A stretch of DNA of 45,430 nucleotides from contig JAFZRM010000030.1 of NCBI GenBank assembly GCA_017619885.1, forward strand, positions 1-45,430, written 5' to 3'. Source of the DNA: Clostridia bacterium. Lineage in GTDB: Bacteria > Bacillota > Clostridia > Oscillospirales > CAG-272. Shown here piece by piece: positions 2,696 to 16,629 of the stretch (the first letter of the stretch is position 1; each line of letters begins with the position of its first letter). A program made the translations under genes and the position numbers. The notes under the pieces are model-generated. The model did not search any database, was not told the origin of the DNA, and saw nothing but the letters and a program-made list of their open reading frames with translations.

Positions 2696-3766
2696 TTATT
2701 TTTTATTGCAAGTGTGATCCAGGTAACAGAATAACGGTTGATTATTTGTATAGTCCCACGTATGTGCTGAATCTCCTCCGCAAATAACACGTTCCGGGCA
2801 ATTTATACATTTTAAGCAATCTGTCGTCCTATCTCTTCTGAAGACCTCAAAACGATTTTGCCATGCTGACCAGAAGTCGTCTGTATGTATATTTCCTTGC
2901 GTCAGCTCCGGTTTATTTATGATGTCCAGACAAGCACAAATATCCCCGTTGCTTCGTACGCTTGCGGTTAATATGCCCGCTCCGCATAAGAAGTAATGAT
3001 CGCGCACCATCCTTTCATGTTCTGACCCGAGATAATGCGAACAACCAAAAGTAACCTCCATACCACATTCGGGATCAAATCGCTTTTCGCGGATAAATGA
3101 CAGCAAGTATGTAAATTGTTCCGGCGTCAGCATAAGATCGTCGTATTCACATGCCCGTCCGATCGGCTCGATATTGACCGGGCGCCAACTTCTGACGCCT
3201 ATAGTCTTGAGAAACTCGTATGTTTTTTCGAGTTCGTCGATATTATTCCGGTGAATGACCGTTGTGACCTGAGGTTCAAAACCTGCTTTTTGCAGCAGTT
3301 CCAATCCGCGGACCGCAAGACGCCATGCTCCCTTATATCTTCTCAATGAATCATGGGAAGCTTCCAGCCCGTCCAGACTGACAGATACAGTCGACATTCC
3401 GGTTTGCTTGAGACTGTTTGCCGTTGCTTCGTTTATCAGAGTGGCATTCGTAGTCATTCCCCATAAAAAGCCCAGAGACCGTACACATTCGGCGATCTCA
3501 AAAAAACCTTTATGTAATAAAGGCTCCCCTCCGGTCAAGCAGATCGAAGGCTTTTCATCTCTGATAGATAGCAGCGTGGTCCTGACGTCTTCAATCGCCA
3601 GGTCTTGTCCTTCTGAAGAACAACCGCTGCCGCAATGCGCGCATTTTAGATTGCATCTGTTCGTTATTTCGAAAAAGAGCCATCGAAGATGCGGGGCGGT
3701 CTGCAGATACTTTCTATGCTGAGCAACACGTTCAAGCTGAGAGCGCTTTAATGCTATTATGTCCAT
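2696..3766 (-). CDS. radical SAM enzyme with C-terminal SPASM/twitch Cys clusters (peptide/protein-modifying type)
   Basis: CNLKCAHC (CxxxCxxC) near the N-terminus. GGEPLL. C-terminal CGAGILTASVRSNGDICAC and CLKCINCPERVICGGDS. The ATG overlaps the stop of the upstream zinc-ribbon gene by 10 nt. Confidence 0.85.
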   Translation of the reverse strand: MDIIALKRSQLERVAQHRKYLQTAPHLRWLFFEITNRCNLKCAHCGSGCSSEGQDLAIEDVRTTLLSIRDEKPSICLTGGEPLLHKGFFEIAECVRSLGFLWGMTTNATLINEATANSLKQTGMSTVSVSLDGLEASHDSLRRYKGAWRLAVRGLELLQKAGFEPQVTTVIHRNNIDELEKTYEFLKTIGVRSWRPVNIEPIGRACEYDDLMLTPEQFTYLLSFIREKRFDPECGMEVTFGCSHYLGSEHERMVRDHYFLCGAGILTASVRSNGDICACLDIINKPELTQGNIHTDDFWSAWQNRFEVFRRDRTTDCLKCINCPERVICGGDSAHTWDYTNNQPLFCYLDHTCNKK

Positions 3767-4059
3767 ATATCATCATCTTTTGATAGAATAAAGCTCTCAA
3801 ATCTGGTTTCTTTATAGTTTTTTGCCGGAGCAGAACCCCCGCACTGCGGACACCACCGCTGCTTGTCATCCATTTGATTCGTTTCCCACGAGAATCCGCA
3901 GTTGGCGCACGTATGGACTCTCCTGATCGGCGGAGGTCCGTAAAGGCACGCAAAGCGTTCTTCAATAAAATCTGGTTTTCCCATCGGAGCACCGCAAAAA
4001 CGGCAGTACTTATCTCCTTCAATATATGTGTTCTTGCAATTTGAACAAACTTTACGCAT
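3757..4059 (-). CDS. 100-aa double zinc-ribbon, Cys-rich protein
   Basis: MRKVCSNCKNTYIEGDKYCRFCGAP...HTCANCGFSWET...RWCPQCGG contains four CxxC pairs plus one extra Cys. AAGGAG lies 8 nt upstream of the ATG at 4059. The longer TTG start at 4077 was rejected because the SD lies inside it. Confidence 0.75.
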   Translation of the reverse strand: MRKVCSNCKNTYIEGDKYCRFCGAPMGKPDFIEERFACLYGPPPIRRVHTCANCGFSWETNQMDDKQRWCPQCGGSAPAKNYKETRFESFILSKDDDIWT

Positions 4060-4106
4060 ATATCTTTCTCCTTGCAATTTATGATTATTATTTAACTACG
4101 CGAATT

Positions 4107-5519
4107 TTAATTATTATTTTCCAATTTTTCAAGTTCTCTTCGATGATATTCAATGCTCCGTTCTTTGCAAAACTCTTTAGCATAGCCGTAATAGTTGTTA
4201 TCTTTCGGTATCATTTCGATTATTTCTTCCAGCTCCCTGATCTCGGAAACATAGTCATATTCGTCTTCTTTTTTATCAGACCCTATCGATTCCACGTATC
4301 GCAACCGGCAGCAATTATAGCGAGCCGTCGGGAAGATCGACGAGAGATACGAAAGATTTTGTTTTAATTCGATATATTCGGCATATGAGATCTCTTCTCC
4401 CGGTCCTTCCCTGCCTGGCAGCTTCTTATTTTTCTTAACACACAAATCATTCACCAAACCGGTGGTTATACCGTTAAGATATACAAGATTCGCTTTTGAT
4501 TTTGCGATACTCTCCATTTCGTTTTTTATTTCATCTTTTTTGTCATCCGGCAAAGAAATATCCTTTCGGATGATCATCGCAGAAGCGCCGTTTGCAGCCA
4601 GATCGTTATTCTCTTTTATAGCATAAACGTATAGTATTCTGAATGCCAATGCTAGATCATCGTGATCGCTTTTTATATCGTTCAAAAAACTGAATTTTGG
4701 ATCTGAATCAATTATCTTTCCGATTTTTCTTTCAATAGAAGTTTTTACTTCATAATAGGCTTCAATAACATCGTTTTCAGTCACGACCCCCATTTTCAGA
4801 CTGTTCCTGTTTTTCCGCAAAAACAATCCTATATCGATCATCACGATAGGAGAGCGGCTGTATGATTTATATATCCTTGCCGCTTCGGCCAATCTTCCGA
4901 CGTTTGAGCAGTAATCCCCGGCCAGCAATGAAGCTTGCTCATTATATCCGGCAAAACGCCGCAAAATGCTGTAACGCGGTTCCTCATCAAATCTGAACAC
5001 GTAGCTTTGGTTGATCATATTCTGAGCATGCATATGCGGCATAAAAAACGGTTTATTGAATCCGTGTACAATAACAGTATAAAAGACGTCAAGACAAGCA
5101 GTTTCCTTCGTCTCATCCGATGCTTTTTCGTCTTGCAGCACTTTTCTGCAGTTTTCGATCGACGCCATCTCATCGCGTTCAAAGAAACGGTATCTGGCAT
5201 CTTCAGTCATCTTCAGCGCCAGATAATATTTGGCGTCACGATCGATCAGATCTGTTATACGTGATACATTGTTTTTTAATTGAGCGCTTTTTTTCGTTAA
5301 ATCGCTGAACTTTGAAATCAGCGTGCCGCACTCCGATTGAACGCATTTAATATACTTGCTCTTCATCTTCTGCTCGACAAGTCCATCCAATAGTATGCCC
5401 AGCACCTGAACGATTTTTGTCATACCTTCGATGTTTTCGGCCAGCTTTTCGCAAACTGTTTTGATATTCAGTTTATCATAGATTTCTTCTGTTTCTACAC
5501 TGCTCTTTTGAATTTTCAT
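4107..5519 (-). CDS. hypothetical protein, 470 aa, predicted all-helical, no family recognised
   Basis: Long ORF in the AT-rich island. GGAG/AAGGGG SD upstream of the ATG (MKIQKSS). A consensus promoter lies immediately upstream. First gene of the minus operon. Confidence 0.7.
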   Translation of the reverse strand: MKIQKSSVETEEIYDKLNIKTVCEKLAENIEGMTKIVQVLGILLDGLVEQKMKSKYIKCVQSECGTLISKFSDLTKKSAQLKNNVSRITDLIDRDAKYYLALKMTEDARYRFFERDEMASIENCRKVLQDEKASDETKETACLDVFYTVIVHGFNKPFFMPHMHAQNMINQSYVFRFDEEPRYSILRRFAGYNEQASLLAGDYCSNVGRLAEAARIYKSYSRSPIVMIDIGLFLRKNRNSLKMGVVTENDVIEAYYEVKTSIERKIGKIIDSDPKFSFLNDIKSDHDDLALAFRILYVYAIKENNDLAANGASAMIIRKDISLPDDKKDEIKNEMESIAKSKANLVYLNGITTGLVNDLCVKKNKKLPGREGPGEEISYAEYIELKQNLSYLSSIFPTARYNCCRLRYVESIGSDKKEDEYDYVSEIRELEEIIEMIPKDNNYYGYAKEFCKERSIEYHRRELEKLENNN

Positions 5520-5538: not shown

Positions 5539-5567
5539 ATTATACAACACATTCTTGGAATTGTCAA
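5539..5567 (-). promoter_or_regulatory. consensus sigma-70 promoter of the minus operon
   Basis: Minus strand reads TTGACA (5567-5562), 17 nt, TATAAT (5544-5539). It sits about 20 nt upstream of the ATG at 5519, so the leader is very short. Confidence 0.6.
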
Positions 5568-5615: not shown

Positions 5616-5719
5616 TTTCCAGATTATTCTCAAGAATACTTGACAGATTTTGATGTTATTCTTAATTTCGCTGGCCAACAGAAAATTTTTTCCAGATAAT
5701 TCTCGAATACTATTGACAA
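5616..5719. promoter_or_regulatory. two copies of an imperfect 31-bp direct repeat (5616-5646, 5689-5719), candidate operator pair
   Basis: TTTTCCAGATTATTCTCAAGAATACTTGACA versus TTTTCCAGATAATTCTCGAATACTATTGACA. Each ends in TTGACA and contains a small ATTCT..AGAAT / ATTC..GAAT dyad. Confidence 0.5.
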
Positions 5720-5741
5720 ATCCAGAAAATAGTATATAATA
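5714..5741 (+). promoter_or_regulatory. sigma-70 promoter of the six-gene plus operon
   Basis: TTGACA (5714-5719), 16 nt, TATAAT (5736-5741). This implies a 5' UTR of about 150 nt before the ATG at 5899. Confidence 0.55.
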
Positions 5742-5898
5742 TATGTTGACGTTTCTTAAAATCAGTATCATCGTTAGTTATGATCCACGTGCTTTGGTAA
5801 GCGATCACTTATTACGTTACTACATCAAAATACGATTCATATATATATGCGCTCTCATGTGCAAATCGTTATACAGAATCAATTGAAGGAGACCTGAA

Positions 5899-7164
5899 AT
5901 GGAAATAAAACGCTGCGGTGATGACGTCGTCGATTACAAGATAGATATTTGTGATCCGTATTCATTCAGAAAGCTTAAGCAAGACGTCTTCAGCTCATAT
6001 CGAAACAAGAGAAATGCCGGGTTCGATATATCTAACGTATACGAAGACTTCGGAGAAATGCTCGTAATGGGTGTGAACACGCTTGTTCTTGATTACTATT
6101 ATCTGATCAGTGAGCTGTCAAAAAAATTCAAGGTCATAATGCTCGGAGAAGACTTCGGGCTCTCATCCGTTTCTTATCTTTTGGGGTTGAGTACCTATAA
6201 TTCCGGCCAGCTCAAAACAAACATTGAATACGGGCAGTTTTGGCCGTCGCGTCTCAGCTTTGGAATCGACAGAAGTAAAGCGTCGGATTTTGAAGAAGCA
6301 ATACGAGCTTTTGATACCGACGAGCACGGGAATCTGCCCGGTGTAAACGAAAAGTACGGCGAGGATTCAAACCGCGTTGAAACCATAAAGATGGGCCAGA
6401 GACCCGTAACGATCAAGGTCCGTTACATCGACACAAAGCGCTTTCGTTTGTTAACAGACAACGAACCAGATTATTCAGCTCTGCCTTTTCCGAAAATCGC
6501 AGCGGATACGTTATACGATCTGCTCGATGGTAAAACTGAATGTTATCGCATAGGAGAGGAATCTGCAGAATTGATCGAACCCCTCCTGACCATGTTCAAA
6601 CCTGAATCGTTTAAGGAGCTTGAACAGGTCTGCGCTCTTTTGCTGGCAAGCAGAGATTCGGCGGATGTCATACTCAAAAGGAGAGAATCCGGCTTTGAAC
6701 ACTGGGAGATGTACTTGTCAAAAGAGAGCTTTGCACGCTTTGTTTTCGGGATCGACGGCTATTATGATGACGCCGTCCGACTGATCTCAAGAATGGACGA
6801 CGGAACAGTCGGCGATGAAGATATCGAAATACTTAAAGATCTCGGTACAAGCGATGACGTGATCAACGATATCTGTAAGATGCGCAGCATTCCTTGCAGA
6901 GCTTTTGCAGCAGATCTTGCCAGGATCGTGTGGCGCAGTCAGCTTGAGAAAAACGCGATATCTGAGCTTCGTGACTTCTGGCCCTTGTCGGATGATCCCG
7001 ATACTGACGATCGCGAGCAGGAGATCCTTGACCGTATTCCCTGCACTGACGAGGGCATGAAAGCTGTAAAAGACTATCTCGAATCTTATGAAAGCTATCA
7101 GGCTCGCGATCGGTTAAGAGAAATACGTGAGGAACTGAACTGGCGGCGCTTTGCCGGCATATAA
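5899..7164 (+). CDS. hypothetical protein A (421 aa); by-eye resemblance to a truncated DnaE/PolC (Pol III alpha) palm-fingers core
   Basis: AAGGAG 7 nt upstream of the ATG. Motifs occur in DnaE order: GEDFGLSSVSYLLGLST (cf. [19 protein letters not shown]), QFWPSRLSFGID (cf. RFLNPERVSMPDIDID), VRYIDTKRFRLLT (cf. VKFDFLGLRTLT), YRIGEES (cf. GVFQLES), FKPESFKELEQVCALLLASRD (cf. LKPDRFEDIIALVALYRPGP). The coding call is solid; the homology call is tentative. Confidence 0.8.
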   Translation: MEIKRCGDDVVDYKIDICDPYSFRKLKQDVFSSYRNKRNAGFDISNVYEDFGEMLVMGVNTLVLDYYYLISELSKKFKVIMLGEDFGLSSVSYLLGLSTYNSGQLKTNIEYGQFWPSRLSFGIDRSKASDFEEAIRAFDTDEHGNLPGVNEKYGEDSNRVETIKMGQRPVTIKVRYIDTKRFRLLTDNEPDYSALPFPKIAADTLYDLLDGKTECYRIGEESAELIEPLLTMFKPESFKELEQVCALLLASRDSADVILKRRESGFEHWEMYLSKESFARFVFGIDGYYDDAVRLISRMDDGTVGDEDIEILKDLGTSDDVINDICKMRSIPCRAFAADLARIVWRSQLEKNAISELRDFWPLSDDPDTDDREQEILDRIPCTDEGMKAVKDYLESYESYQARDRLREIREELNWRRFAGI

Positions 7165-15324: not shown

Positions 15325-16629
15325 TTAAAGTGATACAAGAACAACACGGCAATTTGATTTTATCTTTTCTATATCCGCTGCGGTGAGATAGCTTTTTTCA
15401 AACAGAGCTTTTGCAATACCACATAACAGATCGTTGTTTTTCGCAAGTATTTCTTTTGTCTTGCGGTAAAGGCGTTCAATTTCAACCGCAGCCGCCGGAT
15501 CAACTCTTGCTTCGGTTTCATCCGGATTTTCAAATCTATCGAGGTGAAGATTAAAGCCGCCGGAGCAACATCCACCGATCAGCATCGTTACCGTACGGAA
15601 GGCTTGTTCAAGGTCACGTGAAACACCTATATCTGTTATACCGAATTTCTGCTCAAGCGCAGCTTTACCGGCAAGTGAAATACAAACGTCAGCCATTCTG
15701 TATTCTATAATGCCGTTATTTCCGTTATTATACTGAGAAGTGAAGCCTCCGGAGCTTTTATTGCCGCTGTATGCGGAAACAAGGGTAACGCTGCCCGGAT
15801 CAAGCACTTCGGCAACTGCAGCGTGTCCCGCTTCGTGCCATATAACACGTGTGACTTGCTCGTTTGCATCATATATGTCAACGTCTAAATGACCTCTGTT
15901 CAACACGTCGTTCGGTATGTCGTGAACAGTGTGCAGACAAGCTTTTATTACGTGATCCATCGTTATGACGTCCGCACGCTCGTAGCCCGCTAACAAGCCC
16001 GCCTCGTTTATTGCAGTTTCAAGTTCCGCACACGAGCAGCCGTCCAGCAGACGCGCAACGACTGCCGCATCTATCTCGCCGACGCACTTTTTTTGTTTTA
16101 TATAATGGGCCATTATATTTACAGCATCGTCGCCGCGGGGATTGCACACCTCGATCACGCGGTCAAATCTGCCTGCACGGAGCAGCGATGAAGGAAGAAC
16201 GTCAATATCGTTTGCGGTCGCTAAAACGAAAACGTCTTTGCCCTTTATGTTATCGATGCACGACTGCACCGTGACGTATTCCTCCTGATCACGACGGCGT
16301 GAATCTCCGTTTGCGAACTTGTCCATATCGTCAAGAAAAATTATTGACGGCGCGGTTTCTTTCGCTTCTTTGAAAGCGGCTTTTAACGCTTTTACAAAAT
16401 CGCCGTTCGGCTTGTCCTTGCGGCAGATTATCGCTTTGCGTCCGCTTGCTTCCATCAGAGCGCTCGCCATAAGAGTTTTTCCGACTCCGGGATCGCCGTG
16501 AAGCATCAAACCGCGCGGAGCTGTGACTCCGAGCTTTTTATACGACTCATTGTTTTTCAGCACGTCGCCTATCTGCATAAGCTCTTTTTTGATTGCATCG
16601 TAACCTATGACCTTGTCAAATTCTTTCAT
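15325..16629 (-). CDS. FtsH-like AAA+ ATPase fused to M41 zinc-protease domain, without transmembrane segments (434 aa)
   Basis: Walker A GDPGVGKT. Walker B IIFLDDMD. SRH ATANDIDVLPSSLLRAGRFDR. HEAGHA zinc motif. LAGKAALEQKFG...SRDLEQA. No N-terminal hydrophobic segments. AAGGAG SD. Confidence 0.85.
   Translation of the reverse strand: MKEFDKVIGYDAIKKELMQIGDVLKNNESYKKLGVTAPRGLMLHGDPGVGKTLMASALMEASGRKAIICRKDKPNGDFVKALKAAFKEAKETAPSIIFLDDMDKFANGDSRRRDQEEYVTVQSCIDNIKGKDVFVLATANDIDVLPSSLLRAGRFDRVIEVCNPRGDDAVNIMAHYIKQKKCVGEIDAAVVARLLDGCSCAELETAINEAGLLAGYERADVITMDHVIKACLHTVHDIPNDVLNRGHLDVDIYDANEQVTRVIWHEAGHAAVAEVLDPGSVTLVSAYSGNKSSGGFTSQYNNGNNGIIEYRMADVCISLAGKAALEQKFGITDIGVSRDLEQAFRTVTMLIGGCCSGGFNLHLDRFENPDETEARVDPAAAVEIERLYRKTKEILAKNNDLLCGIAKALFEKSYLTAADIEKIKSNCRVVLVSL

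Follow-up and report, generated by a model that had tools for sequence, protein, structure and literature searches.

To our knowledge, few radical S-adenosylmethionine (rSAM) enzymes with a SPASM domain rewrite whole proteins rather than leader-tagged peptides, anSME and QhpD being examples. The window analysed here, the whole 45,430 nucleotides of contig JAFZRM010000030.1 from a Clostridia bacterium (Oscillospirales; CAG-272), encodes an rSAM/SPASM enzyme together with a 100-residue double zinc-ribbon protein (ZR). An original prediction, made from the DNA sequence alone, had proposed that ZR is a plausible substrate of the enzyme and had pointed to anSME and the QhpD/QhpC pair as analogues. 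The comparisons described below identify closer ones, namely the family pair TIGR04133/TIGR04134, both members of which are hypothetical equivalogs, and, with respect to the sequence motif, the tyramine spliceases that act at X-Tyr-Gly. The best overall explanation of the data, to which we assign a probability of roughly 0.6, is that the two genes form a horizontally mobile cassette in which ZR is the substrate of the co-translated rSAM/SPASM enzyme, with splicease-type chemistry the likeliest reaction.

The two analogues first put forward resemble the locus in part. anSME (PDB 4K36-4K39) is a compact SPASM enzyme of about 360 aa that has no RRE (the recognition element of RiPPs, which are peptides made by ribosomes and modified after translation) and targets a protein rather than a leader peptide; it is also the best full-length structural match to the window's enzyme (363 aligned columns, TM score 0.68). 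However, anSME requires a C/S-x-P-x-R target, whereas the linker of ZR reads C-L-Y-G-P and no sulfatase gene lies nearby. In the window's enzyme one of the seven SPASM cysteines is an invariant serine, and its match to the anSME family model, TIGR03942, reaches 69.5 bits where the cut-off is 349. QhpD is similar in concept: the target of this SPASM enzyme, QhpC, is rich in Cys, is about 100 aa long and is the product of a neighbouring gene. By contrast, no QhpD-type family was among the 25 best NCBIfam matches of the window's enzyme and the locus has no qhp dehydrogenase genes. The target in QhpC is Cys-Asp/Glu, while the conserved site of ZR is Tyr-Gly and its eight ribbon cysteines look like metal ligands.

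Tyramine spliceases (PlpX; IPR026482, which corresponds to TIGR04103) are rSAM/SPASM enzymes that excise C8H9NO (-135.06 Da) at X-Tyr-Gly (PMC11414181, PMC11626197, PMC11002830), leaving an α-keto-β-amino residue that inhibits proteases (PMC11414181, PMC11626197, PMC10533398, PMC10849128, PMC11002830). Some of the systems are binary and lack an RRE protein, and leader-free splicing of folded proteins has been shown; in the known systems an activating helix that binds the splicease is needed (PMC11414181). Leu-Tyr-Gly, the sequence found in the window's ZR, is a native splice site (PMC11626197, PMC10533398), and the splice tag derived from PlpA, ...RP-L/G-YG-LPI, is also of the form Y-G-x-P (PMC10533398). 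A census based on scoring YG motifs beside rSAM-SPASM genes detected such systems in 189 genera, with 27 enzyme-substrate pairs confirmed (PMC11414181, PMC11626197, PMC10533398, PMC10849128, PMC11002830).

Described spliceotide systems comprise PlpX/PlpY-PlpA and PcpXY-PcpA (type I) and RhaX-RhaA, RcsX and RasX (type II). Like these, the cassette places an rSAM/SPASM gene beside a protein with an X-Tyr-Gly site. ZR, however, has no leader of the Nif11 or NHLP type and is a conserved, folded and metal-binding protein with a single site. Also unlike the spliceotide systems, the cassette has no protease or exporter, and its product is presumably intracellular.

The evidence for a functional link between the two genes comes from their distribution. 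The enzyme is represented by more than 120 database clusters at 61-72% identity, and the genome records that contain it are nearly all rumen or gut metagenome-assembled genomes (MAGs). A species-representative genome collection yielded 45 orthologue loci from three phyla: Bacillota (Oscillospiraceae, Lachnospiraceae, Acidaminococcaceae, Anaerovoracaceae and Christensenellales), Planctomycetota (Thermoguttaceae) and Chloroflexota (Anaerolineaceae). In 44 of the 45 the rSAM gene is immediately preceded by a ZR gene, the exception having 162 nt upstream before the contig ends, and the pair was also found in metagenome contigs. This pairing is far beyond chance. When all flanking open reading frames (ORFs) were clustered, the enzyme and ZR alone were common to different loci. 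Among 123 neighbouring proteins no Pfam or PADLOC family recurred more than twice, and no recurrent partner, exporter or protease was found. A 470-aa protein encoded next to the pair in the window is absent, as are the other genes of the surrounding island, from all of the ~60 other loci that contain the pair. Since only the enzyme and ZR are common to the loci and the 470-aa protein is absent elsewhere, the comparison argues that the functional unit is a two-gene cassette and not three genes. Thus, of the three-gene operon in the original prediction, the part that joins ZR to the rSAM enzyme stands and the part that includes the 470-aa gene does not.

Two loci contain tandem ZR genes ahead of a single rSAM gene, with two copies in L009 (Thermoguttaceae) and three in L032 (a Solobacterium MAG). 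In RiPP clusters, too, a single enzyme is often accompanied by more than one precursor gene. One of the L032 copies has diverged, with a linker that reads IYGPLP and loss of the C-terminal CGGxAP. In a Christensenella MAG (L041) the ZR gene (2688-2951) and the rSAM gene (5629-6723) are separated by ~2.7 kb containing two unrelated ORFs (304 and 339 aa; 3021-5132), a stretch that may be an insertion into the cassette.

ZR contains nine cysteines, comprising four CxxC pairs, as had been noticed at the outset, plus Cys38. The protein displays marginal matches to two Pfam zinc-ribbon families, DZR (27.6 bits, cut-off 27.3) and Zn_Ribbon_1 (25.0 bits, cut-off 25.0). It is ~65% identical across phyla and is conserved over its whole length. 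In 24 metagenome homologues all eight ribbon cysteines are invariant, as are a number of other residues, and the linker between the two ribbons has the consensus F-A-C-[I/L]-Y-G-P-P-P, in which Tyr40, Gly41, Pro42 and Pro44 are near-invariant. The motif [I/L/V]-Y-G-P-x-P is present in the linker of every one of the 50 ZR copies extracted from the loci, while [VIL]YGP[PAE] is rare in the source genome (11 of 25,151 reading frames). Linker residues 33-45 have no secondary structure in the AlphaFold2 (AF2) model of ZR (pLDDT 69). Several ZR proteins have Thr, Ala or Leu at the position of Cys38, which rules this cysteine out as an essential modified residue. ZR has no signal peptide, lipobox or match to TIGR04134, and a search of PDB sequences with a ZR profile gave chance-level zinc-ribbon matches only.

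Some variation is evident outside the conserved core of ZR. A third zinc ribbon has been added N-terminally in some of the proteins (L060, 7638-7994; P0126, 161 aa), and in the subclade nearest the window's enzyme L058 and L060 have the linker IYGPPF rather than IYGPPP. The C-terminal tail, encoded by 3757-3800(-) in the window, is variable. Here it reads DDDIWT, an acidic run followed by Trp and zero to two residues, and similar endings (EEEWM, EEEWL, EEEWE and DEDEW) are seen in many other ZR proteins, both in the alignment and in loci L011, L028, L029, L052 and L058. These tails resemble acidic-aromatic docking tips such as the C-terminus of SSB.

The Tyr-Gly motif extends beyond the partners of the orthologous enzymes. 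A class-wide genome search identified ten sister enzymes at 34-49% identity, all of which adjoin a small protein that has a signal peptide and lipobox and is otherwise unrelated to ZR. In nine of the ten partners (C)VYGPP(P) occurs between one and four times, while the other partner has ALYGVP; the Tyr-Gly motif is the sole feature common to ZR and these proteins. A metagenome scan with a profile of the sister enzymes added 80 TIGR04133-like loci, 79 of which were testable. An adjacent small ORF on the same strand encodes Y-G-x-P in 50 of the 79, and in 49 of these 50 the protein has a signal- or lipobox-like N-terminus. With a background of 4 in 1,701 ORFs, about one such locus would be expected by chance. 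Typical partner motifs in this TIGR04133-like superfamily, a grouping defined in the present analysis, are C-E-Y-G-T-P, T-K-Y-G-P-P-P and P-M-Y-G-V-P, and the residue before Tyr varies across it (E, K, M, L, C, A or V). One partner weakly matches TIGR04134 ('radical SAM-associated putative lipoprotein'). These data suggest that the Tyr-Gly loop is the feature tracked by the enzyme family.

The TIGR04133/TIGR04134 pair therefore follows the same two-gene logic as the cassette, an enzyme with a small partner, and X-Y-G-x-P occurs on the partners of TIGR04133-like enzymes. The systems nevertheless differ. The window's enzyme scores below the TIGR04133 cut-off of 425 and falls in a strongly supported clade of its own, while the TIGR04134 lipoprotein is exported and has its site just after the lipobox, whereas ZR is cytoplasmic with one site in the inter-ribbon linker.

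A second system is encoded elsewhere in the source genome, on contig C150 (locus L063; genes at 520-879, 918-1514 and 1507-2529). The NCBIfam models that best match its 340-aa rSAM/SPASM enzyme are TIGR04103, to which the spliceases belong (226 bits), and TIGR03913. The two proteins encoded ahead of the enzyme contain three to four V-Y-A-G-P repeats, and the second ends in a double zinc ribbon (KKCPACG...FCAGCG...FCPCCG...FCTECG).

The assignment of the window's enzyme to the rSAM/SPASM class, first made from its CNLKCAHC motif and C-terminal cysteines, is borne out by matches to Pfam Radical_SAM (PF04055; 82.5 bits, cut-off 29.5, E 5e-23) and SPASM (PF13186; 24.9 bits, cut-off 21.5, residues 261-324). 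Cysteines in the C-terminal region occur at residues 261, 277, 279, 317, 320, 323, 329 and 347, with the layout C261-x12-G-x4-C279, then C320-x2-C323-x5-C329, then C347. The enzyme thus keeps six of the seven canonical SPASM cysteines (CX9-15GX4C...CX2CX5CX3C...C). The fourth cysteine of the CX2CX5CX3C segment is replaced by the invariant Ser333, which implies that one auxiliary cluster would have an unusual ligand or an open site. The AF2 model (pLDDT 82, pTM 0.83) displays a 21-residue N-terminal helix, an rSAM partial barrel and the SPASM region; the enzyme has no RRE domain. Two loops, comprising residues 201-207 and 245-257 (EPIGRACE and HYLGxExERMVRDH), are nearly all invariant yet are the least confident parts of the model, and are candidate substrate-binding elements. 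The structural neighbours returned by Foldseek were SkfB, anSME, SuiB, BlsE, CteB and PqqE, all of which, except BlsE, modify peptides or proteins. No close solved structure was found by sequence, the best PDB sequence match being BlsE.

With respect to family, the best NCBIfam match is TIGR04133 (rSAM_w_lipo), at 250.4 bits against the cut-off given above. The alignment is near full length (residues 8-349 to model positions 4-346 of 350) and includes the N-terminal helix. The next matches, AhbD (146 bits), NirJ2 (141 bits) and TIGR04103 (127 bits), followed by TIGR04053 and MftC, all lie far below their cut-offs, as do the PqqE and NirJ families, and no NCBIfam model covers either the ZR-paired enzyme clade or ZR. 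The subfamily assignment that the original prediction had called for thus leads to an uncharacterised family below its cut-off, and to no subfamily with a known unrelated substrate. Sequence comparison places the enzyme in a distinct clade of the TIGR04133-like superfamily. Assignment to a defence system, and with it a relationship to prokaryotic viperins (pVip), was rejected, as PADLOC, applied to the three proteins and the genes of the island, matched only the generic rSAM core (residues 32-222, 70 bits) and a SPASM domain is foreign to viperins.

The pairing of the genes, the motif common to the 50 ZR proteins, the proteins encoded beside the sister enzymes, the superfamily counts and the tandem ZR copies together argue that ZR is very probably the substrate of the enzyme, modified at the Tyr-Gly loop, rather than an electron donor or adaptor. 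The comparative evidence also supports the earlier suggestion that ZR is a substrate of this kind rather than a classical leader-core RiPP precursor. As X-Tyr-Gly is the published target of the spliceases, a ketoamide product is the leading guess, and by analogy tyramine splicing has a little less than an even chance of being the reaction. On the substrate side the locus agrees with the definition of a spliceotide system, as an X-Tyr-Gly is encoded nearby and Y-G is invariant in the ZR family. With respect to the activating helix, the cassette has no gene for a Y-type or RRE protein and no leader; the enzyme has a conserved N-terminal helix of its own (residues 3-23).

In the mechanism that we envisage, the two folded zinc ribbons would serve as docking handles, there being no leader on the substrate and no RRE on the enzyme, and would present the flexible linker, X-Tyr-Gly-Pro-x-Pro (Leu39-Tyr40-Gly41), to the active site. 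The 5'-deoxyadenosyl radical would then act on the Tyr-Gly site and a tyramine equivalent would be excised, converting Leu39-Tyr40 into an α-keto-β-leucine (ketoamide) residue. The product would be a cytoplasmic mini-protein bearing an electrophilic ketoamide. By analogy with the spliceotides such a product might be a covalent-reversible inhibitor of Ser/Cys proteases, although we regard this as doubtful. A broader and equally speculative proposal is an intracellular 'spliceoprotein', in which the leaderless ZR is rewritten at one Tyr-Gly to an α-ketoamide and its ribbons dock first with the RRE-less splicease and then with the target, the product being either a covalent-reversible inhibitor, whose target could be a Ser/Cys protease of a phage or of the host, or a carbonyl cofactor carried on a protein. 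Under this proposal the horizontal spread of the cassette among phyla of the rumen and gut that are unrelated to one another, in many cases into variable regions with defence genes, would reflect a role in conflict or protection.

Several observations weigh against a spliced substrate. Conservation along the whole length of ZR exceeds what a passive carrier of one site would need, and hence ZR may itself perform some function or may belong to the enzyme as a stable subunit. On the enzyme side the agreement with the spliceotide definition breaks down. TIGR04103 is the best-scoring characterised peptide-modifying family for the enzyme, but the match of 126.6 bits falls far short of the cut-off of 725 and covers the rSAM core only (residues 28-295 to model positions 5-280 of 412). 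AhbD and NirJ2 slightly outscore it. Furthermore, other rSAM reactions, for instance a cross-link, an epimerisation or a hydroxylation, would be compatible with a conserved Y-G-x-P site too.

The last point leads to the strongest rival explanation, in which ZR is again the substrate and the Tyr-Gly loop the site, but the chemistry is different. Candidate reactions are a C-C or C-O cross-link within the motif (such as a triceptide-like Tyr-x-Pro cyclophane), a thioether from Cys38 to the backbone, L-to-D epimerisation of Ile/Leu or Tyr, and β-hydroxylation. We consider this explanation unlikely, though it has several points in its favour. Several other SPASM families are at least as close to the enzyme as TIGR04103 is, and its structural neighbours form thioethers (SkfB and CteB), Lys-Trp cross-links (SuiB) or Glu-Tyr cross-links (PqqE). 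In addition, a Cys often lies two residues before the Tyr, giving C-I-Y-G in most ZR proteins and C-V-Y-G in several lipoprotein repeats, and the Pro at +2 is conserved. The replacement of Cys38 in several ZR proteins, together with the many lipoprotein repeats that contain no Cys, means that a thioether cannot be the essential reaction. Indeed, the sole pair of residues that is invariant across the superfamily is Tyr-Gly, preceded by a variable residue, which is the published definition of a splice site.

A different role for ZR, as a rubredoxin-like Fe/Zn accessory subunit that donates electrons to the rSAM cluster or as an adaptor for a nucleic acid or protein target, appears improbable. 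The four CxxC knuckles, some of the CPxCG type, do resemble the metal sites of rubredoxins and zinc ribbons, and the equal conservation and translational coupling of the two proteins would fit a stoichiometric complex; Dph3/Kti11, the electron donor for Dph1-Dph2, provides a precedent. By contrast, the partners of the sister enzymes are exported lipoproteins with few cysteines that have nothing but the YGPP motif in common with ZR, and what links the partners is thus this motif rather than a metal site. A redox partner would not be expected to occur as two or three tandem paralogues, as ZR does, and no second candidate substrate gene is conserved nearby. The same observations tell against the alternative raised at the outset, that ZR delivers some other target to the enzyme.

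The original prediction had also placed the 470-aa protein in a three-gene operon with the pair and had pointed, as very weak evidence, to an R-x4-H string (RSIEYH) near its C-terminus that has HEPN-like spacing. The protein, which ends in ...KERSIEYHRRELEKLENNN, has no Pfam, NCBIfam or PADLOC family match. A word-indexed search returned the protein itself alone, and a full HMMER search of 1.84 billion representatives revealed one real relative, at 30% identity. A role for the 470-aa protein as a HEPN-like effector or scaffold that works with the pair is very improbable. The gene lies on the same strand as the pair, with a gap of 47 nt to ZR; a perfect promoter consensus precedes it and no terminator was predicted between it and ZR, the promoter and terminator calls being pattern matches only. 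Together these features make co-transcription plausible in the source genome, and transcription from this promoter may possibly read through into the cassette. However, in addition to the absence of the gene from the other pair loci, its sole relative lies in a locus that has no rSAM-ZR pair, its GC content (0.395) differs from that of the cassette (0.45-0.46), and a separate promoter-like site, which may be the cassette's own promoter, precedes ZR. The HEPN assignment was rejected, as no HEPN family was matched and RSIEYH lies beyond the region aligned with the sole relative, whose tail has no R-x4-H. The comparative data thus largely refute the three-gene operon as a unit. Least probable of all is that the enzyme acts on a small molecule, in the manner of AhbD, NirJ or a BlsE-like decarboxylase/dehydrogenase, with ZR incidental or regulatory: AhbD (TIGR04545) and NirJ2 (TIGR04055) are indeed the second and third NCBIfam matches, with near full-length alignments, and BlsE heads the PDB sequence matches, but the scores fall far short of the 400-500 bits that these families require, none of the loci has genes for a haem, d1 or nucleoside-antibiotic pathway nearby, and the strict co-inheritance with a motif-bearing protein would be left unexplained.

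The distribution of the cassette indicates that it has been horizontally transferred. Forty relatives belonging to the same genus, family or order as the window all lack the enzyme, and among 399 genomes sampled from its class the source genome alone has a ZR-type orthologue. An island of low GC content (0.38-0.47, compared with 0.55 for the genome) has the cassette at its edge. A tree of the enzymes recovers the ZR-paired sequences as a monophyletic clade (support 100) with a long stem branch, and the Planctomycetota and Chloroflexota sequences are nested inside the Bacillota diversity, which is the pattern expected of horizontal transfer. That it has spread so widely among anaerobes of the rumen and gut suggests a function on which selection can act. 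IMG/VR viral contigs yielded no relative of the enzyme, and a phage origin of the cassette is thus unsupported. One locus, L031, is on a 5.8-kb contig assigned to an Escherichia coli isolate (H07611-L1 cleanbin), but its cassette groups with those of the Clostridiales MAGs L005 and L033 (support 97, short branches). Most likely the contig was mis-binned and the gene does not come from E. coli.

The ZR-paired clade thus provides a probable enzyme and substrate that are compact and highly conserved, with one clearly delimited candidate site. If the reaction is splicing, it would extend a known chemistry to a folded, metal-binding and leaderless natural substrate. It would also indicate a role for the TIGR04133/TIGR04134 superfamily, which is common in gut Bacteroidota-type lipoprotein loci, and would provide a naturally leader-independent splicease for installing β-amino-acid ketoamides in proteins. 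Were the chemistry other than splicing, the pair would represent a new reaction on a Tyr-Gly-x-Pro motif. A literature search that did not extend to the 2022 splicease census (Chem 8:2659) found nothing on a zinc-ribbon SPASM substrate or the VYGPP motif. That census may list the lipoprotein-type superfamily; the ZR-type clade is probably absent from it, since the clade occurs almost only in MAGs.

Table 1. Location of the features discussed (positions in the window, or in the locus named in the first column)
Feature	Position	Strand	Basis or remark
rSAM/SPASM enzyme gene	2696-3766	(-)	356 aa; ORF and Pfam
SPASM auxiliary-cluster region, residues 261-347	2726-2986	(-)	Cys positions, invariant columns, Pfam SPASM
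CNLKCAHC (residues 38-45), Cx3Cx2C predicted to bind the radical-SAM [4Fe-4S] cluster	3632-3655	(-)	C38, C42 and C45 invariant in 24 orthologues
N-terminal α-helix, residues 3-23, ahead of the rSAM barrel	3698-3760	(-)	AF2 secondary structure; K7, Q10, A15, R18 and L21 invariant
ZR stop / rSAM start overlap, 10 nt	3757-3766	(-)	Read directly in the sequence; translational coupling
ZR (double zinc-ribbon) gene	3757-4059	(-)	100 aa; ATG at 4059, stop 3757-3759
Leu39-Tyr40-Gly41-Pro42-Pro43-Pro44 codons, proposed modification site in the inter-ribbon linker	3928-3945	(-)	[I/L/V]-Y-G-P-x-P conservation
Promoter-like TTGAAA-17-TAAAAT ahead of ZR, right where the 470-aa gene ends	4104-4132	(-)	Consensus scan, 10/12 matches
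470-aa gene	4107-5519	(-)	ATG 5519; near-orphan neighbour, outside the conserved cassette
Perfect TTGACA-17-TATAAT consensus ahead of the 470-aa gene	5539-5567	(-)	Consensus scan, 12/12 matches
Tandem ZR genes of L009	5013-5285, 5348-5791		
Tandem ZR genes of L032	1167-1481, 1529-1825, 1873-2163		

The arrangement of the cassette in the window is summarized in Table 1. The overlap of the two genes, as first reported, is real, with the rSAM ATG (3766-3764) located within the last ZR codons; at other loci the two genes overlap by 1 nt or are separated by a short gap. The ATG at 4059 is the preferred start of ZR, being preceded at a distance of 8 nt by the Shine-Dalgarno sequence AAGGAG. Searches against Pfam, NCBIfam and PADLOC revealed no leader-type peptide, protease or exporter around the three genes, in agreement with the initial description of the locus.

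The low-GC island also encodes a 434-aa protein with AAA and Peptidase_M41 domains (FtsH-like, soluble; 15325-16629(-)), which is unlinked to the cassette in other genomes. In the 'FtsH ternary' conflict systems a helical protein, an rSAM enzyme and a peptide are combined with an FtsH-like ATPase (Kaur et al., PMC7159879). Assignment of the locus to these systems was rejected, as there are no MoxR or vWA genes, the rSAM enzyme is of another type and the pair stands alone elsewhere. Scattered PADLOC matches were observed in the neighbourhoods of other loci (TnpB/Cas12f-like, PDC-S01, PDC-S41 and a type II restriction endonuclease), none of which recurs. Genes of defence or toxin type surround the cassette in some metagenome contigs. 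The cassette of L060 (4993-7281) lies near Fic and PemK genes, and that of L056 (3818-11754) is located among WYL, HIRAN, AAA_15/AAA_21 ATPase, ADP-ribosylglycohydrolase and GmrSD/HNH genes.

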